Shown: in pieces, positions 13,646 through 37,089 of the stretch
How the letters are laid out: each line of letters opens with the position of its first letter
Numbering within the stretch: the stretch's first letter is position 1
Origin: a virus
Taxonomy: Duplodnaviria > Caudoviricetes
IMG/VR virus record: IMGVR_UViG_3300044466_000036
Span: 1-45,030 of that record
Reading direction: 5' to 3' (one strand)
DNA length: 45,030 nt
Program-made: the position numbers and the translations under genes
Notes under the pieces: model-generated
What the model was told of the DNA's origin: nothing
Databases searched by the model: none
Seen by the model: only the letters and a program-made list of their open reading frames with translations

Positions 13646-13651
13646 GGGTGG

Positions 13652-15404: not shown

Positions 15405-15413
15405 CGCGAGCCG

Positions 15414-15617: not shown

Positions 15618-17444
15618 TCAGCCCACCCTGTCTGTGCGGTTCGTCTCGGCGGGGCCGTGGTCTTGTACCACCGGTCGTTCGATCAGCACATCCTTGGAGG
15701 GTGTCTTCCAGACATAGCCAGGGCGGACCACAACAACTGGCGCTCCGTCGCGGATGTCCGGGCCGATTAGCTGGTGGCGGCGCCGATCAAATGCCACCTC
15801 TTCGCCAGCATTGTCGATCGGTTCCAGACGCATTCGCTTCATCCGCGCCCGCACCCGGTGAGTCATCGCGCGGGTTGAGGCATCCTTGGCGGCGAGTTCT
15901 TCAACCTCGATCGCCATCTCGGCCAGCGCTCTCGCGGCGTCCATCTCGGTCTGCTGCAACCGGTTGAGCAGGTCCGGACTCTCCTGCGGTTCGGCCAGCG
16001 CGGCGGCCCTGTCAGCCGCGCTGAGGGGCGCGCCACCTCTGTCCTGGGCCGGGGTGTCACCGGCCGCGCCCAACCGCCGCTCGCCCTGCCACGACGACCC
16101 GTCCAGGATCGCCACACCAGCCGGCCCCGAATTGGCGATCTCCAACGGCGTCGGCCACCCCGCACGATCACCCCGAAACGCCTCCAACCACCCCCGCAAC
16201 CGGTCAGACCCCGGCCCGGACGGGTCAGCCGCCAACGCGCCAGCAACCCGCCCGGCTACATCGCCCACAGCCCCGGGCTTGGTCGAGTCCCAGCCATAAC
16301 CTCTCCGGGCCGCAGCGACGCCACCCTCGTAGGCGGGGCTGATCGTCGCCCGGGTATACCCGGCGTCGGTGAGGACCCGGTCGGCGTTGTCGTCAAACGC
16401 CCGGCCGAAACCGCGCCGCTGCCACTCCGGGGCGATAGCCAGCATGTCGTTGTGGACAGTCCGGGTCGTGGGGTGGAGCAGACGCCTAAACCCGCCCACG
16501 ATGTTGCCGGCGTCGTCGCGGATGTCACCCTCAGCCCGGATGACGACGCCATCGCGGCCGTCGTAGACGCGGGACAGGTCCGGGTCCAGGGTGGCGTGGA
16601 GGCCACCGATGTGGTTGTCGTAGGCGTGGGCGATGACTCGCCGGAGTTGCGGGGCGTGGGTGAGGGGCAGGTCGCGGTCGGGGCCGAGGTCGGGTATGGC
16701 GCTGGCGAGGGCGTCCGCCGTGCCGGCTTCAACCGGGGGTTCCGGCGCGACTGACTGCTTGTACGTCCGCCACGGCTCACCCGTGTCGATGCTGATCAGG
16801 TGGTTGTCCTGGTCGCCGATCCGCAAAGCATCTGCCCGGTGCTGGGCCGTGAGCGTTTTCTGGTTTGTCTCGGGCACGAGGCTGACGTGCGGGTTGCGGT
16901 CCATGCGCTTGAGTACCTGGTCCAGCTCACTGCGGGGGATGTCGCTTAGCGCGGCGCGGAGGTCGGCGATGCTGATGTGGGGGTTGCGGTCGCGTCCCTT
17001 GCGGGCGAGGACGAGTTGCTGGTACGCGGCGCCGACACGATCCTCAACCTCAGCGGCGCGGGTTGGTGTCAAACCTGCCGCTGGCGGCGGGGCGGCGACG
17101 GCCGTGTTGGGGCTGCGGGTCGCGTGGGCTGGGGCGGCGGCCGGGGGCACGTAGCCCGACAGTCTCTCACCGGAGACCATGCCCGCTTCGCCGTCCCCAA
17201 ACTCAACCCAGTGTGCCCCACCCGACCCACCCGACCCACCGCCCACGCCGCTGGCGTCGCGCTCGTCGTGGCCGACGTAGGTGACCGGCCCGCGAGTGCT
17301 GTGGGTGAGCCTGTCCCCGGCCTGCCAGCCGGAGCGAGCCTGGGCGTCGCGGGCCACGTGGCCGGCGTCGGTCACGCTGCGGTCGGGAGCCTCCAGGTCC
17401 GGCACCGACGATACGGCGGGCCCCGCGTCGCCTGGAGCGGTCAC
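15618..17444 (-). CDS. large multidomain protein: wHTH-like + GNAT-like + GrpE-like C-terminal domain
   Basis: IAPEWQRRGFG...ARRGYGW (GNAT motif A); FDRRRHQLIG...VVVVRPGY...LIERPVV (GrpE beta-domain pattern). Confidence 0.7.
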   Translation of the reverse strand: MTAPGDAGPAVSSVPDLEAPDRSVTDAGHVARDAQARSGWQAGDRLTHSTRGPVTYVGHDERDASGVGGGSGGSGGAHWVEFGDGEAGMVSGERLSGYVPPAAAPAHATRSPNTAVAAPPPAAGLTPTRAAEVEDRVGAAYQQLVLARKGRDRNPHISIADLRAALSDIPRSELDQVLKRMDRNPHVSLVPETNQKTLTAQHRADALRIGDQDNHLISIDTGEPWRTYKQSVAPEPPVEAGTADALASAIPDLGPDRDLPLTHAPQLRRVIAHAYDNHIGGLHATLDPDLSRVYDGRDGVVIRAEGDIRDDAGNIVGGFRRLLHPTTRTVHNDMLAIAPEWQRRGFGRAFDDNADRVLTDAGYTRATISPAYEGGVAAARRGYGWDSTKPGAVGDVAGRVAGALAADPSGPGSDRLRGWLEAFRGDRAGWPTPLEIANSGPAGVAILDGSSWQGERRLGAAGDTPAQDRGGAPLSAADRAAALAEPQESPDLLNRLQQTEMDAARALAEMAIEVEELAAKDASTRAMTHRVRARMKRMRLEPIDNAGEEVAFDRRRHQLIGPDIRDGAPVVVVRPGYVWKTPSKDVLIERPVVQDHGPAETNRTDRVG

Positions 17445-20400
17445 GCTTTTGGGCGAGCACCACCAGCCATCGCGTCGATGGCCTTGGCTGCGGCCCGCAG
17501 CGCGCGGTACCCGCGGCTCACCCGCGCCCGCGCCTCGCTGTTGGACATCTGGACCGGCGACCTCTGCACCTCGCCAGCCGCGTGGAAACTGGCGCTGCCC
17601 TCCAGTTCCTCCGCCGCTTGACGCAGCCAGGCCGCCACGCCGGCTGGTGAGTCGCCGTTGCGTAGCCTCATCTCAGCCGTCGAGAGGCGGGTTTCTGCGT
17701 CGTATGCCATGCGGTTCGCCGGGACGCCAGAGAGCTGAAACAGGTCTGGAACGGCGTGTCGACTGAGCCGGACTGCTGCGGTCGGGGCTGCGACCGCTGC
17801 GGTCGCTGGGACGCTAGGGGTACCACCGCCCGGCCCGGCCCGCTCCGCAGCCACAATCGCCGACTCCCACTCATCCATGTGCTGAATGATCTGGGACACC
17901 GTCAGATCCGTGTCATGACCATCCACAATGGCCTTGTCGAGGCCGGCTTTGATCGCCCGGTCACGCAGGCCCCGCGCCTTGGACTGCTCACCCCGGCTCG
18001 CCTTGTCCCACCTCAGCGCAGGGGACGACGTGCGAATAACCGGCGGTTGCCGTCCGGCGGATGCGTCGATCAACGGCTGCTGCGCCGGCTTAGGCGCCGT
18101 ACCCCGCTCGGCGTCACGGATCGCCGCCTCCCACTCATCCATGTGCTGGGCGATCTGGGATGCGGACATGGCCGTGTCATGACCATCCACGTTGGCCTTC
18201 ACCAGTCCGGCCGCCGCCGCCCGGTCCCGCAGCCTCCGGGCACGGGCCTGCTCACCCTTGCCCAGCTTGCCGAAGTCCCCAGCGGGGCTGGTGGTGCGGA
18301 TGACCGGCACGGGTGACGTCCCGGCACCCAGCTCATCACCCCTCGTCGGTGCTGGCGCCGCAGCCTTCTTTGCCGCAACCTTCCGCGCGGGCACACCAGT
18401 AACACTGGCCTCCGACAACCGCGTCGACGACCCATCACCATGCGCCAACACAATCCCAGGCCGCAACACATGCACCTGCGTACCAGCCTCTGGGGCAGTC
18501 CCGACATGCCGGTGAGCCTCCGGGTCATACGGCTGTTTCGACCCAGCCGCCCCCCCAACCGGGCTGAGTTTGTGGGCCCGCACCAGTTTCGCCAACGCCC
18601 GGGTACCGGCCGCCGAGTCGCCATGGTCAAACATGCCGGCAACAGCGTCAAGATCGGCTTTGGTCTTGGTTTTGGCGCCAGACTCCTCTGTGGCGGGGTG
18701 GTGCGGGCTGCCGATGGCACGAATGTGGTCCGCGATGACCGTGGGGTCGGTCTTTTTGGCGCGGAGCTCGGCGAGTTCGGCCGCCGCCGCAGCGTAGGGC
18801 TTCGCGTCGGCGACAGCCTGGTAGCGGTCGCGGGCGGCAGCTCGGCCGCCCGCGACCGCTGGCGCGGCATCCGGGGCGTGCTCCACCAAACCAGCCAGCC
18901 GGGCCCGCCGAGCGGCCTGCTCATCCGGGGATCTGATGTCCGCCACCGTGTCCCGCCCGGTCGCGTCGAGACCCGGCCGATCACCCTCAAACCCCCGGAT
19001 AGCGACGGAGTCAAGGCGACGTCCGGTCGTCGCCTCCACGATCTCTAAACGCAGATCGCTCATGTTGCGGCGCGAAACGCTCGGAACGCTGAGCTCTTTC
19101 GCCAGCGCGACGAGGTCTGTCTTGGCGTATCCCTCTAGTTGTTGGTGTGCCTCTTCGCGGCTGGGCAGCGTCATGAGTCGGGTGGTCATCTCCCCTGGCG
19201 GCAACTTGGCCTTCTTCGCGCCAGCCGCCTTGCCCAGCGCGGGCACAGCCCGGCCAGCCCTGCCCACAGCAGGCAACGTCGAGCCCGCTGGTGCCGCCTG
19301 CGACACAACAGTCACCGCCGCCGCCGGACCGAACATGCCCTTGTCCGTGTGGATCCTGTCCTTCCCCACGGCCGTCACCGTTGCGGACTCATGCCCGTCG
19401 TGGATCACGTCACCGGGTTTGAGCCACCCCAGCCTCGCCCCGGTCAGCTCGTGCCCGACCAGGTCCGGGTACCCCAACCCGGGTTGCGACTCGCCCCGAC
19501 CACGAACCGCAGCGTGATCCAGCCGAGACCCGACAGTGTGCTCAACAATCCGCTCCCGCATGGCCTCTTTCGTGGTCAGGCCACCCCTCGCGCCCGACGC
19601 CTCAGCGACAGCCCGCAACGTTTTGGCGTCCAGACCAGACAACACCTTGTGTGCCTCCTCCCGGGAGGAGGCGGCCCCAAGCTGGTCGGCAACCTGGGCG
19701 GGGTCGACAGCCGCCTTGGCTGGTGCGGCCTTCCGGCCGGCCTTGGTCGGCCCGCTCGCCTCCCGCACCGTCGCCGGCGCCAACCGGAAACCAACCGTGT
19801 GCTCAACAATCCGCTTGCGCAACACCTCCGGCGTGGACGCACCAGCCGTAGACGTACCAGACGCCATCGCCACATCACCCAACTCGCCGAGCGTCAACCC
19901 CTCCAGGTGGGCATTGGCCTCCTCCCGGCTCGCCGATGACTCTAGTTTGGAGACAACGAGCCTTGGGCTGGGCTTCTCGGCCCCGCCTCCCTCACTCGCG
20001 CGGGCTGGGGCGCTTGGCGACGGCGTAGCCGGCTTCGCCTTGCCCTCGCCCCTAGCGAGAGCATCTGCGATGTGCGCCTGCCGTGCCTCCCGGGTTTTGA
20101 CATGCGCAGGCATGCTGATACCCAGCTCACCAGCCAACTCCGCGAGTCTCGGCGCAGTCATACCCGGCTCTTGGTCGAGCTGGGTTATGACCTCGTGCCG
20201 ACTGCCGGCACGCCGAACACGGACCGCCACGTTCGGGACGTCAGGCGCCGCGCCGCGATCACGCTCCCGCCATGCCTCCTCCGAAAAAGGGGCGCGACCA
20301 GGCTCGCGCACACGCGGCGCGGCCTCTCTCTCGCCTGGCTTGGCCCCGCGGAACGACCCCTCCGGGGCCTTTTTCGCTGGGACTTTCGGAGCCGCCTCGG

Positions 20401-20704
20401 GGCGCGGCGGCAGGTCAAACCCCGCATGCCGGCGGGAACCCGCCCGCGCCACCACGGCTGGGCCCGTGCGACCGGCCCGCTGACGGATCTCGTCGGCCGT
20501 CACGGCGTGGACAGCCCGCGCCTTGACCCGCGCGCGAGACGCTCCCCGGGCGGGTTTGGCCCCCGTCGCCCGGCCGATCAGCTGATCAGACACCGCCGAT
20601 AGCCACGACGGCCCGTTGAGTTTGCGCGCCCACTGGCCCCGTTTCCGCCCTGGGGCGGACACGTGCGGGTGGAGCGCCGCCGTGAATTTACGCTTAACGC
20701 CCAT
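17441..20704 (-). CDS. large repetitive multidomain head-region protein
   Basis: 1087 aa; N-terminal FTAALHP..GQW motif; SREEA...IVExTxGxRL repeats; GrpE-like segment; duplicated DGHDT...QHMDEWE unit. Confidence 0.75.
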   Translation of the reverse strand: MGVKRKFTAALHPHVSAPGRKRGQWARKLNGPSWLSAVSDQLIGRATGAKPARGASRARVKARAVHAVTADEIRQRAGRTGPAVVARAGSRRHAGFDLPPRPEAAPKVPAKKAPEGSFRGAKPGEREAAPRVREPGRAPFSEEAWRERDRGAAPDVPNVAVRVRRAGSRHEVITQLDQEPGMTAPRLAELAGELGISMPAHVKTREARQAHIADALARGEGKAKPATPSPSAPARASEGGGAEKPSPRLVVSKLESSASREEANAHLEGLTLGELGDVAMASGTSTAGASTPEVLRKRIVEHTVGFRLAPATVREASGPTKAGRKAAPAKAAVDPAQVADQLGAASSREEAHKVLSGLDAKTLRAVAEASGARGGLTTKEAMRERIVEHTVGSRLDHAAVRGRGESQPGLGYPDLVGHELTGARLGWLKPGDVIHDGHESATVTAVGKDRIHTDKGMFGPAAAVTVVSQAAPAGSTLPAVGRAGRAVPALGKAAGAKKAKLPPGEMTTRLMTLPSREEAHQQLEGYAKTDLVALAKELSVPSVSRRNMSDLRLEIVEATTGRRLDSVAIRGFEGDRPGLDATGRDTVADIRSPDEQAARRARLAGLVEHAPDAAPAVAGGRAAARDRYQAVADAKPYAAAAAELAELRAKKTDPTVIADHIRAIGSPHHPATEESGAKTKTKADLDAVAGMFDHGDSAAGTRALAKLVRAHKLSPVGGAAGSKQPYDPEAHRHVGTAPEAGTQVHVLRPGIVLAHGDGSSTRLSEASVTGVPARKVAAKKAAAPAPTRGDELGAGTSPVPVIRTTSPAGDFGKLGKGEQARARRLRDRAAAAGLVKANVDGHDTAMSASQIAQHMDEWEAAIRDAERGTAPKPAQQPLIDASAGRQPPVIRTSSPALRWDKASRGEQSKARGLRDRAIKAGLDKAIVDGHDTDLTVSQIIQHMDEWESAIVAAERAGPGGGTPSVPATAAVAAPTAAVRLSRHAVPDLFQLSGVPANRMAYDAETRLSTAEMRLRNGDSPAGVAAWLRQAAEELEGSASFHAAGEVQRSPVQMSNSEARARVSRGYRALRAAAKAIDAMAGGARPKA

Positions 20705-24359: not shown

Positions 24360-26024
24360 TCAGCGGGGGAACTCGGTCCGTGACCGACCAGCCGACGGCG
24401 GGGTCAACGCCCGGTTGAGACAACTCACCGTCGCGTCCACCATGTCGTCATAACGGCCACGCGGAAACGCCACCATCTGCTCCTCCAGGCGCACCAAACG
24501 CCGCGCGTGCTTGACCCGCCCACGCTGGTAGAGGTTCAACGCCGCCGCCGCCCTGACCTCTTTCTTGGCGGACTGGTGTACCTCTATCAGCCTCACCGGC
24601 AGGTGGTGCAGCACGGCCCGCCAGTTTTCGCCACCCTGGTTGGTTTCCACCAACACGGCGCGGATGAGCGGAAAGCGGACCAGCAACCCCAGCACGTGGG
24701 TGCGCAGGGGGTCCCCGGTGAGGCGGATCTCCCACGCCTCCTCGACGACGCACCGGGACGGGAGTCGTACGGGTCTGCCCCGGGCGTCGGTGCTGGTCTG
24801 GCCGGGCGCGTACCCGATGATGGCGATGCCGGTGTAGTCGCTCGTGGTTTTGGTGGTGACTGCCGGGTCGATCGAGAGGATCTGGCCGGTCACGCCTTCT
24901 AGCGGGCCGTAACGAAAATCGGCGTCGTTCCAGTAACCACCGTCGGTGCCCATTGGGTCATTTAGGAAGTTTTTCTTGAATGACCTGGTATGTCTGATTT
25001 CGTCGAGGTACGACATCGCCCACTTAGCCGGCCACGTCGATCTCTCAACGCCATCATCACCCACAACGATCGGCGGGTAATGACACGCCCGAAACCGCTC
25101 CTCCCCGATCCACGGCTCAGGCACCTCACCGCTAGCGGACCGCACCAACTGGTGCACCACACTGCCCGCCATCGTCACCGTGCCCACCAGCACAACCCGC
25201 GCCCGGTCGTTCAACGGCAAGATCGCGTCCTGAATGGTCCGCAACCGTTTTTCGGCCTGGGCCGCCGAGTATGAGGACTCGTCGTCCTCGACGTCGTCCA
25301 GTAACAGAGCGTCGGGCCTGCGGGCGCCGACTTTGAGGCCCAGCACCGCGCTGTCGATACCGCGCGCGGCGAAAACAAACCCGGCCCTCGTGTACAACAT
25401 CGCCCGGTTGTCGGCGATCGTGACGCCACTCGGCCGCCGGGCTGCCGTACACAGGTCGGGGTAGTCCTCGCGGAGCAGGTGGTTAGTGTCCAGTTCGTCT
25501 TTCAGCGTCGACAGGTGCGTCTCAGCCTGCGTCGCAGAATCCGAAAACGCGGCGACGAACCGTGTGTAGCCGTGGGCTGCGGCCCAGCACGGGACCAGGA
25601 GGTACCACATCGTCGACTTACCGCTTGCCCGCGGCGCGATGTATGCCCGGCGCCACTGCCTGGGCTCAGTGACCGGCTCCGCCCACTCCAGGGCCTGCCG
25701 GAACCAGTCGAGGTGTGGGTCGGCGAACGTTGTCCGGCCGTCCGCGTCGCGGAGGTGCCGGGCCAGGTAGGTAAGCGCGAAAAGCATCGGGTCGCGAGCT
25801 GTCAGCGCCCGCCGCCGAGCCGGTGTGCCTAACCGCCCGCCGAACGACGCGACGTACGCCTCGGGGTCGAACGTCTCAATCGTGACCGCCGAGCCCACCC
25901 ACATCGGCGGCCCAGCGTCAGCAACCTCACGCTCTGCCGCGCCGGCCTGGACGCGGGTGAGTAGGGCCTGCCAGGAGAGGAGGTCAGACGGGGACAGGCC
26001 AGGCGTCTGAGTGGACGTCACCAC
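24360..26024 (-). CDS. terL: terminase large subunit
   Basis: Walker A APRASGKST, Walker B LLLDDVED, nuclease SIDPA and DDMVDA. Confidence 0.95.
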   Translation of the reverse strand: MVTSTQTPGLSPSDLLSWQALLTRVQAGAAEREVADAGPPMWVGSAVTIETFDPEAYVASFGGRLGTPARRRALTARDPMLFALTYLARHLRDADGRTTFADPHLDWFRQALEWAEPVTEPRQWRRAYIAPRASGKSTMWYLLVPCWAAAHGYTRFVAAFSDSATQAETHLSTLKDELDTNHLLREDYPDLCTAARRPSGVTIADNRAMLYTRAGFVFAARGIDSAVLGLKVGARRPDALLLDDVEDDESSYSAAQAEKRLRTIQDAILPLNDRARVVLVGTVTMAGSVVHQLVRSASGEVPEPWIGEERFRACHYPPIVVGDDGVERSTWPAKWAMSYLDEIRHTRSFKKNFLNDPMGTDGGYWNDADFRYGPLEGVTGQILSIDPAVTTKTTSDYTGIAIIGYAPGQTSTDARGRPVRLPSRCVVEEAWEIRLTGDPLRTHVLGLLVRFPLIRAVLVETNQGGENWRAVLHHLPVRLIEVHQSAKKEVRAAAALNLYQRGRVKHARRLVRLEEQMVAFPRGRYDDMVDATVSCLNRALTPPSAGRSRTEFPR

Positions 26025-26430
26025 CCCGCAACTCCGCCTCCGTGACAGCGGCGCCGTTGACGCGCCACAACCTGACGTCCGCCGCCATCTCGGGCCGCGA
26101 TCCGGCCAGTGACACGACCAGCCAAAACGGGATCCCCGCGGCTACGGCTATGGCGACGTCGGCCGGTGACAGGACTGCCGGCCCGGCGGGGTGGGAGTGG
26201 TACAGGACGAGGGGGTCCTCGCCGGCCGCGTCCATGGCGGTGTACGCGGTGAGGGTCTCGCTCGGGTCCAGCCGAAACCCGCCCTGGGGGTCTAGGGCCG
26301 TGTTGGTCATGGGTATCAGTCGGGTTGTTTCGCCGCGTCTGGCTATGAACCCGCATGCCTCGTCGGGGTGGTCCTGGGAGCAGCGGTTGAGGATCTCGTT
26401 GAGGATCGCAGTGGGCAGGGTCAGCGGCAC
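25984..26430 (-). CDS. JAB/MPN (Mov34) metalloprotease
   Basis: EACG and YHSHP-x6-SPAD JAMM motif intact; GTG start estimated at 26430. Confidence 0.88.
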   Translation of the reverse strand: MPLTLPTAILNEILNRCSQDHPDEACGFIARRGETTRLIPMTNTALDPQGGFRLDPSETLTAYTAMDAAGEDPLVLYHSHPAGPAVLSPADVAIAVAAGIPFWLVVSLAGSRPEMAADVRLWRVNGAAVTEAELRGGDVHSDAWPVPV

Positions 26431-26986: not shown

Positions 26987-27004
26987 GTCGCCTCCAGCGG
27001 CTGA

Positions 27005-27047
27005 GGGGTGGCGGCCGGACTCGGACCGGCGACCTACGGGTTTTTAA
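27005..27047 (-). pseudogene. tRNA 3'-half-like remnant
   Basis: Minus strand TTAAAAA-CCCGT-AGGTC-GCCGG-TCCGAGT-CCGGC-CGCCACC: anticodon loop, 3' stem, variable loop, T arm, acceptor strand; no 5' half seen. Confidence 0.55.
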
Positions 27048-27049
27048 CA

Positions 27050-27321
27050 GGAACACCCCCACGTGCGTGGGGCGGACAGTCGGAGTGCTGCTGACTCGGT
27101 CATAGCTCACGGAACACCCCCACGTGCGTGGGGCGGACACGAGCCGGGGAGGGAAATGGGGGCTAGAGGCAGGAACACCCCCACGTGCGTGGGGCGGACA
27201 TTCGCTGGCGCTGTAGCTCTGCCTCCGCGCCCGGAACACCCCCACGTGCGTGGGGCGGACGCCGTCCTGACCGCGCGCTCAGATAGGGCTGTCGGAACAC
27301 CCCCACGTGCGTGGGGCGGAC
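27050..27321 (-). CRISPR. type I-E-like CRISPR mini-array, 5 repeats / 4 spacers, no cas genes
   Basis: Identical 28-bp repeat GTCCGCCCCACGCACGTGGGGGTGTTCC (minus) at 27050, 27111, 27172, 27233, 27294; four unique 33-bp spacers; 61-bp period. Confidence 0.97.
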
Positions 27322-27392
27322 CCCGATGCCTTAAACGACAAAACGCGCCACGATAAATCCATTTAATAGCAGACCAACCCCAGGATCGTCAA
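27322..27392 (-). promoter_or_regulatory. AT-rich CRISPR leader with candidate promoter
   Basis: TTGACG (27387-27392), 18 nt, TG-C-TATTAA (27363-27368) on minus strand; locally AT-rich. Confidence 0.5.
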
Positions 27393-27477
27393 GCCGACGC
27401 AGCGCGGCGCTGCGCTGCGTCACGGCGCAATTGGTGTCCGCTGAGGATGCCGGGCCGGCATCGGGCGGTGCGCGTGG

Positions 27478-27711
27478 TTAGCCTGACGCCGTGACGGACG
27501 GGCGGAGTATGGCCCGTACCTCTACGCGCTCCGCAGGTGTCATGCCGGGCCATGCGGCGGCAATCCGGCGCGCCAGCGTTGCGGGCGAGTGTGCCGCGCT
27601 GGCCGCCTTGGCGCGGGTGGCCTGCGCCTCCCTGGGGTCTGCGCGGGCCCACCTGGCCCGTCCGGCGGCGGCGGCGATGCGGCGGCGTGTGGCTGGGTCG
27701 TGGGATGGCAT
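27478..27711 (-). CDS. small basic helical hypothetical protein
   Basis: MPSHDPATRRRIAAAAGRARWA...; start estimated. Confidence 0.5.
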   Translation of the reverse strand: MPSHDPATRRRIAAAAGRARWARADPREAQATRAKAASAAHSPATLARRIAAAWPGMTPAERVEVRAILRPSVTASG

Positions 27712-28136: not shown

Positions 28137-28955
28137 ATGATCCGAACCGTCAACACTATTGCTTGGATTGTCCTGCTGTACGCAGTAGGTATGTCCACTG
28201 CGCACATCATCGCCACGGCGCTCATGATCGGTATGCACGGCGTGGCCGCGTACACGTCCCCGCTGCTCGTGGACGCCGTTTTTGCCCTGGGCAAATTGGG
28301 ACGCCTGGAGCGGTTCTCACCAGCCATCCGGCGGTCATCGCTGCGCCTGATGCTGTTCGGGGGGGCGATGTCCCTGGCCTGCAACGTCATGGCCGGGACG
28401 AACCTGGGCCAGCGCATCCACGGTGTCCTGGTCGTTGTCGTGATGGTGTGGATTGAGTCTCATGCCGCCAGGTTGGCCAACCATGGCCGCGCGGCCAGCG
28501 CGGTCATAGTGGCCGAGAGCGAGGCGAACATGCCCGTAGCCGCAGCCCGGGAGGCTGCGGCCAGCGAGACGGCCGCAGCCGTGGCCGCAGCGGAACAGCA
28601 GTTGCGCGCGGCGTTGGCCGCCGAGATGGCTAACGTGGTGGCCGAGGCTGAGCGTGTCGTCCGAGAGGCCATGGCCGCCGAGATGGCCATGGCCACGCGC
28701 CCCGTGGCCAAGCCCCGGATGGCCAAGGCCGCGACTGCGGCCACGACCTCCCGGGCGGGGTCAGCCAGGGCGGCGGCGGCCAGTCTGGCCGACGCCCGCG
28801 CGGCCAGCGGTCAGGCCAGCGGTCAGGCCAGCGTGGCCGTGGCCGCGGTCCTGGCGGACAACCCGGCCATGACCACCCACGAGGTAGCCGCGCTGGCCGG
28901 CGTGTCCACCCGTACCGTCCGCCGTGTCCGCCGTCAGCTGGCCATGGCCAGCTGA
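28137..28955 (+). CDS. Spd/DUF2637-like membrane protein with C-terminal HTH (actinomycete plasmid/AICE type)
   Basis: Four TM segments (SxxHI, PLLVD, SLACNV), coiled coil, THEVAALAGVSTRTVRR HTH. Confidence 0.75.
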   Translation: MIRTVNTIAWIVLLYAVGMSTAHIIATALMIGMHGVAAYTSPLLVDAVFALGKLGRLERFSPAIRRSSLRLMLFGGAMSLACNVMAGTNLGQRIHGVLVVVVMVWIESHAARLANHGRAASAVIVAESEANMPVAAAREAAASETAAAVAAAEQQLRAALAAEMANVVAEAERVVREAMAAEMAMATRPVAKPRMAKAATAATTSRAGSARAAAASLADARAASGQASGQASVAVAAVLADNPAMTTHEVAALAGVSTRTVRRVRRQLAMAS

Positions 28956-29225
28956 CCGGCCGCGACTGCCTGGCCGCCGAGATGGCCAGCGGTCAGGCCA
29001 GCGTGGCCATGACGTCGGCTACCCGGTACAGCAGCCTCGGGCGGCCGCGAGCCCCTGTCTGGTGCGGCTGGCTGGCCCACCCATGCCGTCTGGCCAGGTG
29101 CCGCAGCCGGGTTACGGGCCAGCCCGTGCCGGCCGCGATGTCGGCGAGAGTGAGGTAGCGATGGCGCATTTGGACTCCCCATGTGGCGCGGGTGGGTGTC
29201 CGGGCCCGGCGTCACGCCGCAGGCT

Positions 29226-29624
29226 CATCGCGAGTAGCTCGGCCAGTGGATCTTACCCACCGACCCCGTCGATGTTGAGACGCCCGTGGTATTCCGAAGC
29301 CGACGCTTCACGGTCGACGGCAGGTACGTACAGCTCGCTACCTCGTACCTGCCGACGGACCTGGCCCGGGGGACCCGCATCATGCATACCGACACTGGCC
29401 CAGGCGGCATCTACGCCGTCTTCACGGAAACCGGCCACGCTCCCGCCATGTACCGCGAAGAGGTCAGGTGCCGGGCGCCGAGCCCAGACGAGGTCAACCG
29501 TCTCGGCGTTCCCGCCAGCGCCTCGGTTATCGAAATCATCCGTCAGGCGTTCCAGACCGACGGCCGGTGCATCGAGGTTAACCGGATGGTGCCCGTAAGC
29601 CCTACTTCTGAGACGGTCTCCTGA
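29226..29624 (+). pseudogene. GntR/KorA-like regulator fragment (UTRA domain only)
   Basis: VQLATSYLP...DTGPGGIY...IEVNRMV UTRA pattern; no HTH domain; 3' end runs into res-like region; left boundary approximate. Confidence 0.7.
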
Positions 29625-29760
29625 TCATGGCCTGGATGACTGGTTTTGGGTCGGAAACCTGTCTCAAAAAACCTGCCCATTGCCACCCTATTGCAGCTGG
29701 ATATATGAGCTAAGTTATGAGACAGTCGTTAGGTCAGTGAGACAGGACCGAGATAGGAGA
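29600..29760. promoter_or_regulatory. res-like site upstream of resolvase
   Basis: Repeated/inverted TGAGACAG half-sites (CTGTCTCA 29659, TGAGACAG 29718 and 29738, TGAGACGG 29609). Confidence 0.6.
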
Positions 29761-29767
29761 CAGGAAC

Positions 29768-30328
29768 ATGGCCACCATCGGCTACGCGCGAGTCAGCTCC
29801 ACCGGCCAGAACCTGGACCGGCAAACCGACGCGCTGACCACCGCGGGATGCGAGCGGGTTTTCACCGAGAAAATGTCGGGCGCAAGGCGCGACCGCCCCA
29901 CCTTGGCCGCGATGCTCGACTTCGCCCGGGCCGGCGACGTCATCGTGGTCACGGAACTGGCCCGGCTCGGCCGGTCCCTGCTCGACCTCATCGCCACCGT
30001 GAACACCCTCGGCGAGCGCGGGATCGGACTCCGCAGCCTAAAAGAAAACATCGACACCACCACCCCCGTCGGCACGCTGCTCTTCCACGTCATGGGCGCG
30101 CTCGCCGAGTTCGAGCGCCGCGCGATCAACGAGCGCGCGGCCGAGGGCCGTGCCGCCGCCAAGGCACGCGGCAAGACCGGCGGCCGCCCCAAGGTCGAGG
30201 ACACCAAAATCAACGCGGCGAAGGCGCTCGTAGCGGGCGGCATGTCCGCCAGCGCGGCAGCGAAGGCGACGGGCGTGGGGCGGGCGACGCTGTACCGCCA
30301 CGGCATCGGCACCGTGGAGGCGGCCTAG
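29768..30328 (+). CDS. serine recombinase (resolvase/invertase)
   Basis: IGYARVSS, RLGRS, ALAEFER, GGRP, C-terminal HTH GVGRATLYR. Confidence 0.95.
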   Translation: MATIGYARVSSTGQNLDRQTDALTTAGCERVFTEKMSGARRDRPTLAAMLDFARAGDVIVVTELARLGRSLLDLIATVNTLGERGIGLRSLKENIDTTTPVGTLLFHVMGALAEFERRAINERAAEGRAAAKARGKTGGRPKVEDTKINAAKALVAGGMSASAAAKATGVGRATLYRHGIGTVEAA

Positions 30329-30998
30329 CCCGGGCGGCACCGCGCGGCGCCCCGGTCCACGCCGGCCGGGGCGCCGTCGTCACCCGCGACGGCCCGCAGC
30401 GCGGCAGACGCCGACCGCACCCGGTCGAGCAGCCACGCCGGGGCACTCAGCTCACCCTCCACGACGGCCGAGGTGACAGCATCGAGGGCCTGGGCTGTCT
30501 CACGCACGGCGTCGCGGTCGAGGCTCATGACACCATCATGACCTGCCGCAGGATGGGTGCCAGTGACGGCATGACCCGTCACGGCGGACCGTCCTGTGGT
30601 CTCCATCTACTGAGAGGTTCTCAGTGTCCTCTTGGGTGTTATACGGCGTTTCGGTGGGGTTCACGCCGCTATCTTGAGTGGTGTCTTAACGCGGCGCCGG
30701 TCTGGTGTGGCTGGGGTCGTGGTCGCCCGCGCGCAGGCAGCCCGGCGGCTGGCACTCACGATGACCGGTCACACTGAGCAACTCGGACATAGGGGGTATA
30801 CCCCCTCCCCCACTCAAAGGTAGACCGCCGCCGGGGAGGAGACTCGCAGTCCAGACCCCCAAAAACATCTCGAATCGGACATGTGAGGACGCAGTCACCG
30901 GCCGCAGGTGACGGATCGTGACCCCCCGGGGGTAATGTCCGTTTCAGCCCGATATGAGGGACCCTACGCACCTCGCCCCCATTTCCCTCCCCGGCCTG

Positions 30999-31103
30999 TC
31001 AAACAGTGGGACATCCTCGGTGCGGGTACTGGTCTCTGGCTAGTACCAGGGCACGCCTCCTGCGCCATGCCCTGGTACTGCCCCCTGCCCATGTGTGGCT
31101 CAC
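30999..31103 (-). pseudogene. truncated HNH endonuclease
   Basis: VSHTWAGGSTRAWRRRRALVLARDQY is a typical phage HNH N-terminus; stops before the CxxC/HNH core. Confidence 0.6.
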
Positions 31104-31342
31104 GTGCGACACCTTTCGCAGTACCCGCGCGCTATGGACTGGGGCGCCCACAGCGGCTGTTGCCCACAACGGTCGCACGGGCCGCCGTAGTCGTGCGGCG
31201 CCAACTGGAGGGCCGTTTCTGTTGGCGCCAAGAGTGGTGGCGCCAAGTCGATTGGGTTGTGCGGCAACGGGTCCGTGGCTTGCCCTGCGGTTGTCGTTGA
31301 CCACCTGGCGCAGATCGGCGACGGCGCCAGGTCGAACATCGG
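31100..31342 (-). CDS. small Zn-finger-like protein or fragment
   Basis: CDRC...CERC at C-terminus; stop overlaps HNH start; start uncertain. Confidence 0.4.
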   Translation of the reverse strand, partial: PMFDLAPSPICARWSTTTAGQATDPLPHNPIDLAPPLLAPTETALQLAPHDYGGPCDRCGQQPLWAPQSIARGYCERCRT

Positions 31343-31360
31343 GACGTCATCGGTACGGGT

Positions 31361-31703
31361 AGTGCGGGTACTGCGGGTACTAGAAACGGGCACCAGGGGT
31401 GCCGCTCTGGTTTTCAAAAAAACCCCCCCTTTTCGATTCGGACATAAGCGTTAAACCTGGTACGTATCTACCCCCGAGAGGGGGGGGTTTTTTTCTGGAC
31501 TCGCACGCGTTGGGTCAAAAACAGGTTTCTAGTACCCGCAGTACCCGCACTGTCTATGTATTTGTGCCCTTGACCTGCTGAAACGTTAGATGATCTTGGC
31601 GGGTACTAGATCTGGGCCGGTTTTCTAGTACCCGCAGTTCTGCGGGTACTGCGGGTACTAGACCGGTCCTGCGGGTACTAGACCCGCTAGCTAGTACCCG
31701 CAG
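31361..31703. repeat. origin-like cluster of GCGGGTACT repeats
   Basis: 27-bp exact inverted repeat 31361-31387 / 31525-31551 enclosing an A7C7/G8T7 inverted pair; more copies 31599-31703. Confidence 0.85.
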
Positions 31704-32245
31704 GCACCACCTCTGGACCGACCGACCAGGCCCACACCTTCTTGTGGTCGTCGTAGTGCCCCTCAAGCCGGAAACCGCCCCGGTACCGGCCACGCTCGGC
31801 GCGCAGCATCATCCCCAGGCCCTTCGCCGACGGAATGACGCCGTCCGACCGACGGGTCAGGAAAGTGCCCCGCCAGTCGTAGCGGGTGTCGCCCTTGTCG
31901 TCTGGGAATGCCGTGTCTCGCAACTGGGTCGCAGTGAGCCTCTTCTCGCCGAGAAGCTCGTACCAGCGCTGGTAGAACGCCCCGTAGGTGGTTTCCTCCT
32001 CATCGACCATGGCCAGCTCGGCCCGGTTGGTCAGGAACCCCTTCTCGCCCATCCAGTCCAAAAAGCCGGCCGTCGCGCTGGCCCAAGGGGTGAAAGACCG
32101 CATCGGTGTCTCGATGCGCGGTGCTCCGGCCACGATCCAGCCCCGCACGAGGGTCAGAAGCGCGTGCAGCGCCTCAGCAGGGTGTGCCGGGTCCTCCACG
32201 AGCCACTGCTCCAGGTCGGCCCGTAGCGGTCGTATGCGGGCTCCG
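31687..32245 (-). pseudogene. C-terminal fragment of primase/helicase-type replication protein
   Basis: ALLTLVRGWIVAGAP...SFTPW...LGMMLR...GRY.GG resembles C-termini of phage/satellite primases; N-terminus missing. Confidence 0.6.
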
Positions 32246-32251
32246 GGGTGG

Positions 32252-32585
32252 TCATTGGCACCACCGGCAGACGTCGACCTCGTCCTCGCGAAGCTTGGTG
32301 CCGCATCCGCCCGTGCAGAGTTCTGGCACCCGTTCTGGCACCCGTTCTGGCACGTGATTGGGTGCCAGAACTGCCAGATCTGCCAGATTGGCAAGATCTT
32401 CTGGCACTTCTGGCACTTCTGGCATCAAAGATGACGTAGGAGGGGTGCCAGATTCGGTGCCAGATCTGGCAGGCACCCCGTAGTGCCCGTGGACAGGTCG
32501 TGTGATCTTGCCCCGTTCCAGGAGGCGCGTCAGGTGCCTGCCGGCTCGGTTGCGGTGAGGCACCGCTACGGCGGCGAGGTCGGGC
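32252..32585 (-). pseudogene. C-terminal fragment of a second replication protein with TCTGGCA repeats
   Basis: RHLTRLLERGKITRPVHGHYG wHTH-like end, VPE repeats, terminal CxxxC...CxxC. Confidence 0.45.
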
Positions 32586-32588
32586 ACG

Positions 32589-32630
32589 AAAACTGTAGAC
32601 AGGAAAACTGTAGACACTGTCTACAGTTTT
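32589..32630. repeat. AAAACTGTAGACA direct plus inverted repeat
   Basis: Copies at 32589-32601 and 32604-32616; inverted copy 32618-32630. Confidence 0.9.
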
Positions 32631-32863
32631 GATGACGGCTGCCAGCACCCCGCCTGAGCTGCTGTTATGCCCTGCCTCGATGGTGAGCTGACAATGAGCC
32701 GCACTGGCCCGCGCTGGCCTGTGCGCCCGCTGCGGACAGCGCCCGGGTAGGTCTCCCCATACCGGGCGATGAGCGCGTCGAGGTCCGAGGCGGTGCGGCA
32801 CCCGGCGACCATGGCGCGCGGGTGTGTCAACGGCCGCTTCCCACTAGATCCACTAGCCGAAAT

Positions 32864-32895
32864 GGCTACACCATAATGCACGTTATGGTGTAGCC
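32864..32895. other. lox/dif-like recombination site
   Basis: GGCTACACCATAA-TGCACG-TTATGGTGTAGCC: 13-bp perfect arms, 6-bp spacer, 8 bp before the recombinase start. Confidence 0.85.
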
Positions 32896-32903
32896 TCTGG
32901 GTC

Positions 32904-33900
32904 ATGACCGACACCGACCCCTCCACACTCGCCACCCTCACCGGACCCGCCACGGTCGCCACCCGCGACCAACTCGCCGCCTTCACCGACGGGTGGCTCG
33001 CCAACCGTCGGCTCAGCGACCACACCCGCGACGCCTACCGCCGCGACGTCGGCACATGGCTCGACTGGTGTGCCGGCCGTGACCTCGACCCGCTCACCGC
33101 GACATTCATTCACGTCAACGCCTTCGCCCGCGAGCTGGAGACCACCCCGAACCCGCGCACTGGCCGGCCGCTCAGCGTGGCCACGGTCGGCCGGCAGCTC
33201 TCCGGTCTATCCAGCTGGTACGGCTTCCTGGCCAAGGTCGGCATGGCCGCGAATCCGGTGGGCGGCGTGGACCGCCCGCACGTCGAACGCGACCACTCCG
33301 CCACGGTGGGCCTCGCGCAGCCCGAGGTCGACGCGCTCCTCGACGCTGCTGCGGCGCAGACTGGCGCGACCAGAGCCCGGAACCTGGCCATGATCGCCGT
33401 CCTAGTCGACCTGGGCCTCCGGGTGGGCGAGCTGGTCGGCCTCGACCTAGCGGACCTGGGCCGCGAGCGTGGCCACGCCGTCGTCCGCTTCACCGGCAAG
33501 GGAGGTGTCCAGCGGCGCCGCGCGCTCACCCCGGCCGCTGCGGCGGCGCTCGACGAATACCGGGCCAGCGTGGCTGCGGTTGGTGACGCTGACCAGGACG
33601 GGGCGCTGTTCGTCACCTCAACCGGCGGCAGGGTTGACCGGCACGCCGTGTTCCGCCTGGTCCGCCGGCTCGCTGCCGCCGCCGGGATACCGGCCGCTGC
33701 GGTGCTGTCGCCTCACTCGCTGCGCCACGCGTTCGCCACTGCGGCCCGCGAGGAGGGCGTACCGCTGGAGGATGTGCAGGACGCGATGGGTCACGCCGAC
33801 CCGCGCACCACCCGCCGCTACGACCGCGACCGGCACAACCTGGACCGCGATCCGTCGTACGCGATCTGGACCGCACGGGCCCGCCGGTCCGGAAAGGCGG
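32904..33900 (+). CDS. tyrosine recombinase (XerC/D-like); true 3' end about 33900
   Basis: GLRVGEL, GKGG, HSLRH, MGHAD, TTRRY catalytic residues; ORF track extension to 35003 is read-through across a G/C homopolymer. Confidence 0.92.
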
Positions 33901-33941
33901 GGGGGGGGGGGGGCGCGCGCCCCCCCCCCCCCCCCCCCGCC
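33896..33941. terminator. G15/C19 hairpin between convergent genes (sequence probably unreliable)
   Basis: GGC-G15-CGCGCG-C19-GCC. Confidence 0.45.
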
Positions 33942-33947
33942 TCGTCC

Positions 33948-34730
33948 TCATTCCTCCCACCGCATGTACGGCGCCGGGTCCAGGACCAGGCCGCTGTCGG
34001 TGGGCGAAATATACCAAAAATGGTGGCGAAACCAGTCCTTGAGCGCCTCCTCCCCGTAGCGCTCGATGATCTCCCCGTAGGCCCGCCAGTGCGCGCCCTG
34101 GTCGACTGGAAGGTCGGCCGCTTTGTACGCCTCAGACCCATTAAGGGCCTTACGCACCATTTGTTCCGCCGAGCGATAGGGAAAATGCCGCACCTCCAAC
34201 AGGCCCTCCACCCGGGGCCCGCCGGACGGCAGCGTCACCCCGTGGTTGCCCTGGTGGATCACCGCCCCGTCCTCCCATCGCAGCGCCATTTTGGGCAGCG
34301 CCCCTGGGGCGTCCTGCCGCCACACCATCGACCGAAACGGGTCCGGGCCGGCGACGTCCAGCGCGGTGCACAGGTGGTTGTACAGCGCCGCCACAGCCTG
34401 GCCGCGCAGGCCCGCGAGAACATCGCGGATACGCCCGTGGGGGCTGACCCACAGCTCGTCCGCGTCAAACGGCACCACCCATGCGGCACCCGCCTCAGCG
34501 GCCAGCCCGGCCAGCCGACTCATTTTGGCGGACTGGAAGTAGGCCGGGTCGGGGTCGTCCAGCACGGTGAGCGGCAACTCGCCGCCGAGACGATCCAGGA
34601 TCTCCCGAGTGCCGTCCATCGAGTTGTTGTCTGCCACGATCAGGTGATCGACCTCGTCTGCCATGTGCCGCAGGGTGCCCTCGATGACGTCGGCCTCGTC
34701 ACGGACCATCGACACGCCATACGTGGCCAT
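33948..34730 (-). CDS. glycosyltransferase family 2
   Basis: SMVRDEAD, ADNNSMDGT, PFDADE motifs; TGATG-coupled start. Confidence 0.9.
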   Translation of the reverse strand: MATYGVSMVRDEADVIEGTLRHMADEVDHLIVADNNSMDGTREILDRLGGELPLTVLDDPDPAYFQSAKMSRLAGLAAEAGAAWVVPFDADELWVSPHGRIRDVLAGLRGQAVAALYNHLCTALDVAGPDPFRSMVWRQDAPGALPKMALRWEDGAVIHQGNHGVTLPSGGPRVEGLLEVRHFPYRSAEQMVRKALNGSEAYKAADLPVDQGAHWRAYGEIIERYGEEALKDWFRHHFWYISPTDSGLVLDPAPYMRWEE

Positions 34731-35425
34731 CAGTACCCCGTCCCGGCCCGCGTGTGTCCTATGTGCTCCACCCACACACCCGAGTGGCGTGCGCCCCAGA
34801 GCCCGAACCGCACCTGGTCGCCAGGGATGCCGTCCCATGCCATGCCCTCACGGAGCAGTCGGTGGGTCAGCTGGCCCTCCGACTGCGGCACGACCGGCCA
34901 GCCTGCGGCGCACAGCCCGCGACGGTACAGGCCCGGATTGGTCGTGAGGTACAGCTGGTGCTCCAGCCACACCCGGCCCAGGTCGTCCCGGTGCTCCTCG
35001 TAGGCGTCGGGGTGCTGCTCTACCACGCCGCCCGCAGCGTGCTCGTCCGCGTTCCACGCCTGCCGCCGCAGGGCGAGTTGGGCCAGCTGAGGGTGCGCGT
35101 CGAGCACGTCCGCCATCGCGGCGAGGTCCACGGGGCGCTGAAAAACGAAATCATCTTCGACGCCGAATACAAGCCGCTCACACCCTTGGGCCAAGTGCGT
35201 CCACGCTGAGGCGTATGCCCCGCCAAACCCGCTGCGGGCCACGGTCATGACCAGGTCGTACCCCGGGTAGGTCTCCCGCAGCCAGCGCCGGTAGTCGATG
35301 TCGCCGGAGTCATCATGGATGACGCGGCGGGTGATCGGGCCGGTGACCACCCGCTCCAGTGACTCGATAGCCCTGGGGAGACAGTCCCTGCGGCCGTCCG
35401 TCATGACCAGCAGCGCGATGCTCAC
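34730..35425 (-). CDS. glycosyltransferase (GT-A fold)
   Basis: IHDDSGD, GVEDDF, VEHIG motifs; GTGA-coupled start. Confidence 0.85.
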   Translation of the reverse strand: MSIALLVMTDGRRDCLPRAIESLERVVTGPITRRVIHDDSGDIDYRRWLRETYPGYDLVMTVARSGFGGAYASAWTHLAQGCERLVFGVEDDFVFQRPVDLAAMADVLDAHPQLAQLALRRQAWNADEHAAGGVVEQHPDAYEEHRDDLGRVWLEHQLYLTTNPGLYRRGLCAAGWPVVPQSEGQLTHRLLREGMAWDGIPGDQVRFGLWGARHSGVWVEHIGHTRAGTGY

Positions 35426-36036
35426 CGCGCCACCCCTGCTGCGGGCAGGACCGACCGGAGGATGTTGCGGGTCACCCGCACCCTCTCTTCGTCGGTCGCG
35501 CCGAAATTGCGGGAGTCCGGGCGCACGTGCGCCCGGTACACGGCATCTGGGACCGACGCGAACGACGCCCCCGCCAGGTGGCAGCGCAGCCATAGCGACC
35601 AGTCCTCGTAGATCGGCTCACCCCACCACCCGCCCGCCTTGCGGATGGTGGCGACCCGGGCGCACGCCCCGACGCACACCCAGTTGCCCTCGGTCAGGCA
35701 TGCCGGGCCGCACAGGTGGCTGTGCCCGGCGACGCGGGGCATCCTGGCCCGGCCCTGCCCGTTGGTCACGTAGCGGAGTGCGGGTACCCGTATGTCCGCC
35801 GTGCTGGTGGTCATGGCCTCAACATAGCCGGGCTCCAGCTCATCATCGGCGTCCAGGTGGATGACCCACTCGGTGTCGACCATGCTGTCGGCCTCGTTGC
35901 GGGCGTCGGCGAGGGTCGAGCCGCGTACGTGCACGACCGGCAGGCCCAGTGCCCGCGCGGACGGGATTGCCCTCTCCTCAGCGAGCCGAACCCACTCAGG
36001 CCCGCCGAATGTGGCTACCGCAACGGTCGCATCCAC
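35422..36036 (-). CDS. glycosyltransferase family 2
   Basis: ADARN, HLDADD, GGW, YEDWSLWLR motifs. Confidence 0.88.
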   Translation of the reverse strand: MDATVAVATFGGPEWVRLAEERAIPSARALGLPVVHVRGSTLADARNEADSMVDTEWVIHLDADDELEPGYVEAMTTSTADIRVPALRYVTNGQGRARMPRVAGHSHLCGPACLTEGNWVCVGACARVATIRKAGGWWGEPIYEDWSLWLRCHLAGASFASVPDAVYRAHVRPDSRNFGATDEERVRVTRNILRSVLPAAGVAR

Positions 36037-36695
36037 AGCCGCCTCCTCGCCTGGTAGAGGGGGGCACCCGCGTCCATCCGGCCCGGCTGTGCGAGGTACA
36101 ACTCATCCCAGGGCGCCTTGTCGTGGTCCGGGTGCAGGTGCTCCACGTGGGAGTCGAGTGCCATAGCCCAGGCACAGCGGTGTTTTGCTGTGCCCACGAG
36201 CTCGTCATCGACGTACTCGTGGGGGTAGCCCTCGTGGAGGATCTCGCCCGGCCGGTCGATGGCGCCGTGCTGGTCGGCGTAGGCGCGGGTGACGAGACTG
36301 TGGGTGGCGTGCTCGCCCGCCACGACCCTGGGCGACCCGAGGTCGTTGGTGCCTACCACGCCGATGCCAGGGGCCAGCTTCGCGGCGGCGGCCTCTAGCC
36401 AGCCCGGGTGGAAGTGCAGGTCATCCGCGCCCAAAAAGAGCAGCTCCTCGGTGGTGGCCCGGCACCCGGCGTTGATCTTGCGGGCGTAGTCGCCGACCGG
36501 CTCCCGGGCCACCATGATGTGCTCGCACCCGGCCGCGTCTACGGCGGCGAGTACCTGGTCATCCCCGGGCGACAGGCAAAACAGCACCCGCGCGTCACAC
36601 GTCGCGCGGATCGACGCCAGCAGTGGCGCGGCCCGGTGGGGCCGGCCCAGCATCGGCACAAGGATGACCAGTCTCACGCGTCGGATCTTACCCAC
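36015..36695 (-). CDS. glycosyltransferase family 2
   Basis: ILVPMLGRP, KINAG, LGADD, YVDDE, VEHLHP motifs. Confidence 0.85.
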   Translation of the reverse strand: MGKIRRVRLVILVPMLGRPHRAAPLLASIRATCDARVLFCLSPGDDQVLAAVDAAGCEHIMVAREPVGDYARKINAGCRATTEELLFLGADDLHFHPGWLEAAAAKLAPGIGVVGTNDLGSPRVVAGEHATHSLVTRAYADQHGAIDRPGEILHEGYPHEYVDDELVGTAKHRCAWAMALDSHVEHLHPDHDKAPWDELYLAQPGRMDAGAPLYQARRRLWMRPLR

Positions 36696-37056
36696 GGCGC
36701 CGGCGAGTCCGACCTGACAGCGCCACTACCCGACAACGGCGGTGAGGCCGAGGCCCAGGACGTGCACAAGGCCGGCGAGCGGGCCACCTCACGCAAGGCC
36801 GACGTGGACGCCGGCTGGAGATGTGGGTCCTCCAGCCCCGGCAGCCTGCCGCCGGAGGGAGCGAAGGGAGGAGACCCCTAGCGGGTCGCTCCCTCGGTGC
36901 TCCCTCCGGCGCACCGCCCCTACCCGATCTTGACGAAGGGAGCGGTCACGGGCTCATGGCCGCGCGGACGAGAGCTACCAGATCCTCGGCGGGTAGCCCC
37001 GCGAGCCGCGCCCGCCGGGCCGCCATGAGTGCCAGCTGGGCGATCAGGCATTCCTG

Positions 37057-37089
37057 CCACTTGACGTCAAGTGGGATCTTGACGTCAAG
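37057..37089. promoter_or_regulatory. tandem palindromic operator-like site
   Basis: CTTGACGTCAAG at 37060-37071 and 37078-37089; first extends to an 18-bp palindrome. Confidence 0.6.

Follow-up and report, generated by a model that had tools for sequence, protein, structure and literature searches.

A four-spacer type I-E CRISPR array between the probable halves of a decayed phage tRNA gene

The locus described here raises the question of why a tailed phage would carry a multi-spacer CRISPR array, how that array came to lie where it does and whose Cas proteins could use it. It lies in a 45,030-nt stretch of viral DNA from a sediment sample (the window), and the cassette is known from this one instance in this one sample. 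Five identical 28-nt repeats recur with a period of 61 nt on the minus strand, which is also the strand of the terminase, portal and capsid genes. Read in that direction, repeat 1 at the upstream end (27294-27321), which folds into a type I-E hairpin of 6 bp, is followed by spacer 1 (27261-27293), repeat 2 (27233-27260), spacer 2 (27200-27232), repeat 3 (27172-27199), spacer 3 (27139-27171), repeat 4 (27111-27138), spacer 4 (27078-27110) and repeat 5 (27050-27077), the last an identical copy and not a degenerate one. The four spacers are each 33 nt long and all different, and their first bases, read from the side of position 27322, are G, G, T and G. An earlier note on this DNA had described five perfect repeats, four unique 33-nt spacers, this order of first bases and an orientation shared with the late genes, and our mapping bears out each of these points. 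The site at which Cas6e cuts type I-E transcripts is well established, and cleavage there, at the base of the repeat hairpin, is predicted to yield four crRNAs of 61 nt (8+32+21 nt), the canonical size.

The period of 61 nt, the unique 33-nt spacers and a first base that is mostly G are features of type I-E arrays, and the nearest relatives of the repeat place it in the same class. Among the matches listed, the closest repeats differ from it at position 5 only and come from Solwaraspora, two Micromonospora species, Actinoallomurus and one metagenome-assembled genome. At one such locus (L028) the genes cas3, cse1, cse2, cas7, cas5, cas6e and cas1 (the cas6e call scoring 44.7 bits against a cut-off of 45.2) are flanked by arrays with a one-mismatch repeat, and at another (L037) the genes from cas3 to cas5 adjoin such an array. 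The array is type I-E, as the earlier note had it, judged by the similarity of its repeat to those that stand beside complete I-E operons in Micromonosporaceae. The earlier note had proposed comparing the repeat with actinobacterial arrays as a guide to the host. A degenerate form of the repeat, a pattern designed around the phage repeat itself, found 50 loci in 28 genomes of actinobacteria, of which 17 are Micromonosporaceae to judge by their titles and by genera that we take to belong to that family. The best named relatives of the terminase are from Rugosimonospora (66%) and Rhizomonospora (62%), and one of 401 genomes of the family (G028) contains a prophage with a 63% identical terminase; a second prophage stands at 36%. 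Repeat family and terminase relatives thus agree, as had been anticipated of the repeat, in pointing to Micromonosporaceae, and the host is likely to be a Micromonospora-like soil bacterium. Host spacers gave no assignment of their own, the best of 703 still showing 8 mismatches to the phage. Of the 703, 642 have G as their first base, a bias that the first bases of the phage spacers fit, and in AAG-type I-E systems the last repeat base is PAM-derived, as given in the available part of PMC8482600, with which the host G bias agrees; three G among four first bases are in themselves unremarkable (p=0.30). The exact repeat had no match in the viral, genome and metagenome collections, and the degenerate form none in viral contigs. 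All five copies carry a base unseen in the sampled hosts, which fits an array that multiplied at this site from a single founder repeat as well as one taken up from a host outside the sample.

That the array is carried by a virus is supported by the genes around it and by contig depth. Comparison with PHROGs and Pfam of 58 likely genes, chosen from 301 open reading frames, identified a terminase, a portal protein, a scaffold protein, a capsid protein, a tail tube protein, a tape measure protein, five glycosyltransferases, a resolvase and a tyrosine recombinase. The gene for the terminase large subunit (24360-26024, minus strand) begins the virion module downstream of the array. None of these 58 genes belongs to a Cas family in PHROGs or Pfam, Cas7e was not found in the window, and seven host Cas proteins compared with it by tblastn gave no match apart from that of one host open reading frame, in the part where this frame runs over the array of the host itself. 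The record, which is linear, is put at 58% completeness, which leaves some 40% of the element unseen; the closest complete relative (G402, locus L001) has 75 kb and a terminase 65% identical. The earlier description of a phage-borne array without cas genes holds for the 45 kb at hand, in a record only about 58% complete, and we consider it unlikely that cas genes lie elsewhere in the element.

An array of this kind could also be an artefact in which a phage contig and a host array were joined during assembly. The Logan contigs leave some room for this, since the four that cover the array break at repeats, none spans it from end to end and the unit with spacer 2 is not listed among them; the one sequencing run that contains this DNA may also be its source. 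Each end of the array is nevertheless linked to its own phage flank, repeat 5 by an 11.6-kb contig that continues into the terminase side and repeats 1-2 by another contig that continues into the far side. Depth is similar on the two sides (14.6 on the terminase side, at the left, and 13.4 at the right), there are no loose ends, and no other spacers on the same repeat occur among the Logan contigs. The two flanks, moreover, pair with each other at the spacing of a tRNA, as set out below. We regard a chimera as extremely improbable.

Several other features of the window were recorded along the way. A JAB-domain (Prok-JAB) gene (25984-26430) stands immediately before the terminase gene and is also found in G402 and G028. 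The five glycosyltransferase genes lie in a row upstream of the late module (33948-38064), and genes of this kind stand at the corresponding place in both relatives. Two large genes at 15618-20704, encoding 608 and 1087 aa, lie between those for the scaffold and capsid proteins and have no Pfam or PHROG match, and a non-coding 29-nt tandem repeat of about five copies (15385-15558) separates the capsid gene from the upstream 608-aa gene. Positions 18-71 and 28672-28725 are 54-nt perfect inverted copies of part of a DUF2637/SpdB-like gene (28137-28955); the copy at 18-71 is at the left contig end within a 79-nt tandem duplication, where depth doubles, and a second gene of this kind probably runs off that end. 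An Atlas search with 28137-28955 returned only DUF2637/SpdB-like leads, all below 0.9. At 33870-33953, at the end of the tyrosine recombinase gene, a poly-G/poly-C run differs in its letters from the Logan contig, and because of this difference the 699-aa open reading frame at 32904-35003 is probably an assembly error.

If the array is to be used, it must be transcribed, and the DNA upstream of repeat 1 is unusual in composition. Its GC content is 40% at 27353-27392 and 48% at 27322-27392, against 60-74% per kb over the window. The earlier note had read this region as the array's own AT-rich leader. AT-rich it is, but it is not a leader of the host type: the host leader motif, found just before the first repeat at 22 of 28 host array starts and present in 10 of 59 viral I-E arrays with at least two repeats, is missing upstream of repeat 1, and the region overlaps the probable 5' half of a tRNA. 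Because the motif is missing, spacer acquisition at this array is left unexplained. A sequence in the trailer that had been taken for a copy of the host leader motif was dropped, being explained as a tRNA variable loop. The motif TTGACG, 18 nt and TATTAA (27363-27392, minus strand), 10 nt upstream of tRNA position 1, could serve as a promoter; a strict sigma-70 scan called nothing here, and for that reason it is only a candidate. Just upstream of it is a perfect 10-bp GC hairpin lacking a T tail (27396-27421), and beyond this a 77-aa gene (27478-27711, minus strand) whose N-terminus resembles that of a small gene of a PICI-like element in the genome G354 (13/29, pairwise E=2e-5).

What, then, does the array interrupt? 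On its downstream side the minus strand at 27003-27049 reads as the 3' half of a tRNA, with a 9-nt remnant of the anticodon loop (27049-27041), an anticodon-stem strand, a variable loop, a T arm of 5 bp in which U55 is altered, and an acceptor strand that ends at 27007, 43 nt in all from the end of the last repeat; CCA is not encoded. A profile built from 24 tRNAs matched 27047-27011 at E=2.2e-4 and had no other match below E=4 in the window. The best Rfam match for a 100-nt stretch here is likewise tRNA (RF00005), 5'-truncated, at 14 bits and E=1.3, no family reaching gathering level anywhere in the window, and the top phage matches of this half include annotated tRNAs.

On the upstream side, 27322-27352 (minus strand) has the layout of tRNA positions 1-31: a 7-nt acceptor strand, a decayed D region of 19 nt and a 5-nt anticodon-stem strand. 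The first repeat starts at tRNA position 32, where the anticodon loop would begin. This half has no Rfam match and adds nothing significant to the profile score, since 148 and 103 of 2000 controls (the 148 being shuffles) reach the score of the rejoined sequence. The case for it comes from pairing and spacing. Six acceptor pairs and four anticodon-stem pairs form between the halves at canonical distances and, with the five T-stem pairs, make all 15 internal pairs Watson-Crick; three of these (3-70, 6-67 and 28-42) differ from the tRNA-Met of G402 and yet pair across the array. With the 3' half fixed, the two stems occur at exact spacing at 1 of 44,331 positions of the window and at 4 of 242,364 host positions, and chance pairing is found at 30 of 44,331 positions with loose spacing and at 53 of 44,331 when GU pairs are also allowed. 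Apart from the loop, the segment lengths of the flanks (7/19/5, then 5/5/5/7/5/7) equal those of the intact tRNA-Met(CAT) of G402.

ARAGORN reports no tRNA gene in the intact window. With the array removed in silico it reports a tRNA-like gene of 76 nt, at up to 95% of threshold and as a possible pseudogene, and exact removal of the array gives the best score of 81 choices of junction. In controls it reported 116 matches in 3000 when the 5' side was shuffled and none in 3000 when the 3' side was. The rejoined sequence falls short of an intact tRNA in its score, in the conserved D-arm and tertiary bases and in its anticodon loop: the invariant U8, A14, G18/G19 and U55 are altered, and identity to the G402 tRNA is 13/31 in the 5' half and 25/34 in the 3' half. 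Altogether we hold that the flanks are very probably a tRNA gene split by the array at the start of the anticodon loop, the 5' half being assigned by pairing and spacing and not by a sequence profile.

The original identity of the gene is ambiguous. Initiator tRNAs are marked by a 1-72 mismatch and three G-C pairs in the anticodon stem, and the rejoined tRNA has both; ARAGORN, by contrast, assigns it the anticodon UAA in a shifted register. G402 has a tRNA-Met gene directly after its homologue of the gene at 28993-29169 and upstream of the JAB and terminase genes, with no array. In the G028 prophage the same interval has no array and, at default threshold, no tRNA.

Searches for a second case of this arrangement returned none. 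A pattern of repeat plus T arm matched at one viral locus and in 2 of 381 genomes; each match was an ordinary spacer of a longer array. Excising host arrays and joining their flanks produced no tRNA at 90% of threshold in 52 trials. The same operation on viral I-E repeat loci, 13 of 115 being left out for short flanks, gave one pass in 102 (L203), which was rejected as a single-repeat call with further degenerate repeats alongside. Searches of paper listings, mainly of the open literature, brought up no report of a CRISPR array within a tRNA gene. These searches also turned up three ordinary I-E arrays with spacers resembling tRNA T arms (L154, L155, L156); large tRNA gene arrays in Micromonosporaceae (L051 at 12759-15672, L173, L174), the first with 22 genes adjoining the CRISPR arrays of its genome; a conserved orphan unit of one or two I-E-family repeats with near-identical flanks at about position 1500 of L158, L159 and L160 (in G105, G183 and G230); and 123 viral loci with I-E-type repeats (L179-L301), among which 49 of 115 distinct units were called single repeats, some with degenerate copies. 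The single-repeat viral units in this last set are candidates for Racr or Cracr elements.

Has the broken tRNA kept a function? When the cassette was folded as 350 nt, with ends that we chose and on which the result depends, the acceptor stem closed with p 0.92-1.0, or 0.46-0.72 with the repeat hairpins enforced, and the T arm formed with p 0.58-0.70; the anticodon stem did not form. That all internal stem pairs are kept while unpaired conserved bases have changed hints at selection on structure, though an atypical ancestral phage tRNA would look alike.

The same observations bear on a reading in which an array fragment from an unsampled host recombined once into the tRNA gene, killed it and by now is silent or drifts. 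Such a history would go with the patchwork of fragments in the adjoining DNA, the missing host leader motif, the altered invariant bases (U8, A14, G18/G19 and U55), a lack of spacer variation at a depth of about 13 and the failure to find outside targets. Five repeats identical down to the last one are not what it leads one to expect, and neutral decay would presumably have broken some of the 15 internal stem pairs, all of which are Watson-Crick. We consider silent cargo unlikely.

What the guides recognize is best approached through spacer 3, which matches a second site in the window, 30967-30999 on the plus strand, at 27 of 33 positions, with an exact core of 21 nt. No such core appeared in 100 shuffles, and the longest exact run between any of 703 host spacers and the window is 17 nt, with 8 mismatches at the fewest. 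The site is non-coding and lies 3.6 kb from the array. Its mismatches fall at spacer positions 1, 4, 5, 8, 30 and 31, four of the six within the first 8 nt (p=0.02), and it is preceded by TA, not AA; this clustering in the seed may reflect which part of the motif is conserved. Under the rules of type I-E interference, seed mismatches together with the lack of an AA PAM predict no self-attack at this site.

The match lies within a 4.6-kb satellite- or plasmid-like insert (29286-33890) that is not found in G402. The insert holds a UTRA fragment, a serine resolvase, DNA like that of a packaging region, a C-terminal fragment of a primase/polymerase and the tyrosine recombinase, and a 9-nt iteron-like motif occurs in it 12 times. 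Two distinct fields of iteron-like repeats (31000-31710 and 32250-32470), accompanied by a perfect inverted repeat of 27 nt at 31361/31525, suggest remnants of more than one integrative element. Compared with the 401 family genomes, 30780-31100 matched 23 at E<=0.01, mostly over short lengths that we treated as chance. Two matches have a telling position: in G366, the counterpart of 30923-30993 (77%, E=0.0027 with 401 searched) is prophage DNA that directly precedes an HTH gene and the gene for a terminase large subunit, and in G354, that of 31033-31083 (E=1.4e-8) lies ahead of the terminase gene in a compact element with integrase, helicase, terminase and portal/capsid genes. Packaging sites of the cos type lie just upstream of terminase genes, and the position in these two genomes leads us to infer that the site matched by spacer 3 belongs to a packaging region; annotated phages offered no match that confirms a packaging site. 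The integrated element of G354 (L104), with its integrase, helicase, terminase and fused portal-protease-capsid gene, resembles a capsid-forming PICI. Part-matches to the spacer-3 region at L077-L080 were rejected as chromosomal genes, and tblastx matches were dismissed as noise of the sum statistics.

Outside the phage's own genome no protospacer was found for any spacer in the searches that follow. The whole array, compared with phages and plasmids, gave matches to the repeat and otherwise weak ones only. Single-spacer BLAST searches, those with spacers 1 and 4 included, returned nothing below E=0.09; the match at that value, 26/30 between spacer 2 and Pseudomonas F116-like phages, was treated as chance. 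Spacer 3 had no match with up to three mismatches in the 401 family genomes, viral contigs contained neither its 20-nt core nor a 17-mer taken from spacer 4, and a follow-up for spacers 1-2 of 10 genomes, drawn from a 301-genome search swamped by repeat matches, gave no protospacer. The earlier note had proposed comparing the spacers with virus and plasmid sequences; the outcome is the self-match of spacer 3, which lacks an AA PAM. The use against competing elements that it suggested gains indirect support from the match of spacer 3, mismatched in seed and PAM, to a satellite-like packaging region, though these searches found no outside protospacer.

Three further explanations give the guides a different purpose. 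The crRNAs could be decoys that occupy the Cascade and Cas6e of the host, have no useful targets and so lower immunity in the manner of RNA anti-CRISPRs, and three of the four spacers do lack a known target. Viral crRNA-like RNAs that compete for Cas proteins are described in the available part of 10.1101/2024.10.29.618823, whereas the Racrs described in that of PMC11656645 are single repeat units. The spacers here are full-length and unique, with a first base like that of host spacers, and one of them records a mobile-element sequence. The earlier note had raised such titration of Cascade as its second possibility; nothing specific supports it, the spacers being of canonical length and the repeats all intact, and we think it rather improbable.

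Alternatively, the guides could pair in part with the promoter of the host cas genes, leading Cascade to repress its own operon. Phages carry I-E Cracr arrays with several spacers, directed at systems that include those of Actinomycetota, according to the accessible text of 10.1101/2024.10.29.618823, which also gives as their mark at least 9 PAM-proximal pairs to the host CreR target or a cas promoter. The I-E Cracr spacers described there have 21 and 24 nt, against 33 nt here. No spacer had a seed match with an AA PAM in 851 kb of I-E loci from hosts (L025-L074), a set that does not include the true host, and the best whole-spacer matches there had at least 10 mismatches. Repression of this kind is very unlikely.

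The third explanation starts from the DNA after repeat 5. As the 3' half of a tRNA it matches intact tRNA genes with 8-10 mismatches, and RNA from it could act as a fifth guide against the intact tRNA alleles of related phages, so that the array copies itself in. Those 8-10 mismatches fall in the seed, however, in an uninterrupted allele the match would be preceded by GG instead of AA, the supposed fifth guide has no repeat hairpin on its 3' side, and the four true spacers have no match to a tRNA. We judge selfish homing to be highly improbable.

We favor, with a probability of roughly 0.55, the reading that this is a four-guide type I-E array in a decayed phage tRNA gene, whose transcript would be cut by host Cas6e and loaded on host Cascade for host Cas3 to destroy competing phages or satellites. 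We envision a scenario in which the former tRNA promoter drives transcription of the cassette, Cas6e releases the four canonical 61-nt crRNAs (8+32+21), and Cascade carrying them directs Cas3 to such competitors. The target of spacer 3 would be a rival element whose packaging region is related, not identical, to the resident copy, and the resident copy would escape through its PAM and seed mismatches.

A more elaborate version, which we put forward tentatively as possible though doubtful, is a natural tRNA-scaffolded array. A host repeat would have entered the anticodon loop and grown to five copies through host Cas1-Cas2, with the old D arm in place of a leader; the acceptor and T stems would have been kept for the host tRNA machinery to trim and stabilise the pre-crRNA; and the guides would lead host Cascade to packaging sites, those of satellites and of rival phages. 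The match of spacer 3 also suggests a phage guide directed at a packaging region, the point at which a helper phage would be expected to strike in order to exclude satellites.

Among known systems, the array is reminiscent of the mini-CRISPR arrays of SPV1 and SPV2, whose spacers target regions near the array while their own orthologous loci are mutated, and for which an origin by recombination with host arrays has been suggested (available part of PMC6858448). Like these, and like the phage mini-arrays in the available part of PMC11656645, it has a host-like repeat, no cas genes that we could find in the window and a mutated counterpart of spacer 3 near the array. Under the strict definition given in both sources a mini-array has one or two spacers, and here there are four. 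Unlike in SPV1 and SPV2, the repeat differs by 1 nt from the closest one in a sampled host, a leader of the host type is missing, the flanks are very probably a split tRNA, and the matched sequence is a satellite-like packaging region, not a gene of a sister virus, with no target found outside the phage. It shares with Cracr arrays, as the accessible text of 10.1101/2024.10.29.618823 presents them, that it is phage-borne, multi-spacer and type I-E and is predicted to use host Cas6 and Cascade; Cracr arrays in that account have short spacers, sometimes degenerate repeat-like units and matches to cas promoters, whereas in this array the spacers have 33 nt, the repeats are perfect and no match to a promoter was found in L025-L074. 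With Racr (PMC11656645, as far as the source was available) it has in common an RNA from a host-type repeat in a phage without accompanying cas genes in the window, and it differs from the solitary Racr unit in its five repeats and four unique full-length spacers.

The cassette of about 400 nt is a single observation, read from sequence alone. Homing-endonuclease genes are known to sit in the anticodon loops of phage tRNA genes, as with T4 SegB and the endonucleases of the T5 region, and here too a phage tRNA gene appears to be split at the anticodon loop; the insert, in contrast, is a non-coding CRISPR array with no nuclease gene. The nearest geometry is that of the engineered tRNA scaffold, in which cargo replaces the anticodon loop and the acceptor and T arms are retained (available part of PMC7961669). 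The laboratory construct has an intact tRNA core, whereas the phage cassette is natural, with a decayed D arm, an altered T loop and processing that is only predicted. The locus offers a testable route by which leaderless viral mini-arrays could arise and be expressed, the reuse of a phage tRNA transcription unit, in which the array occupies exactly the position where engineers put their cargo.
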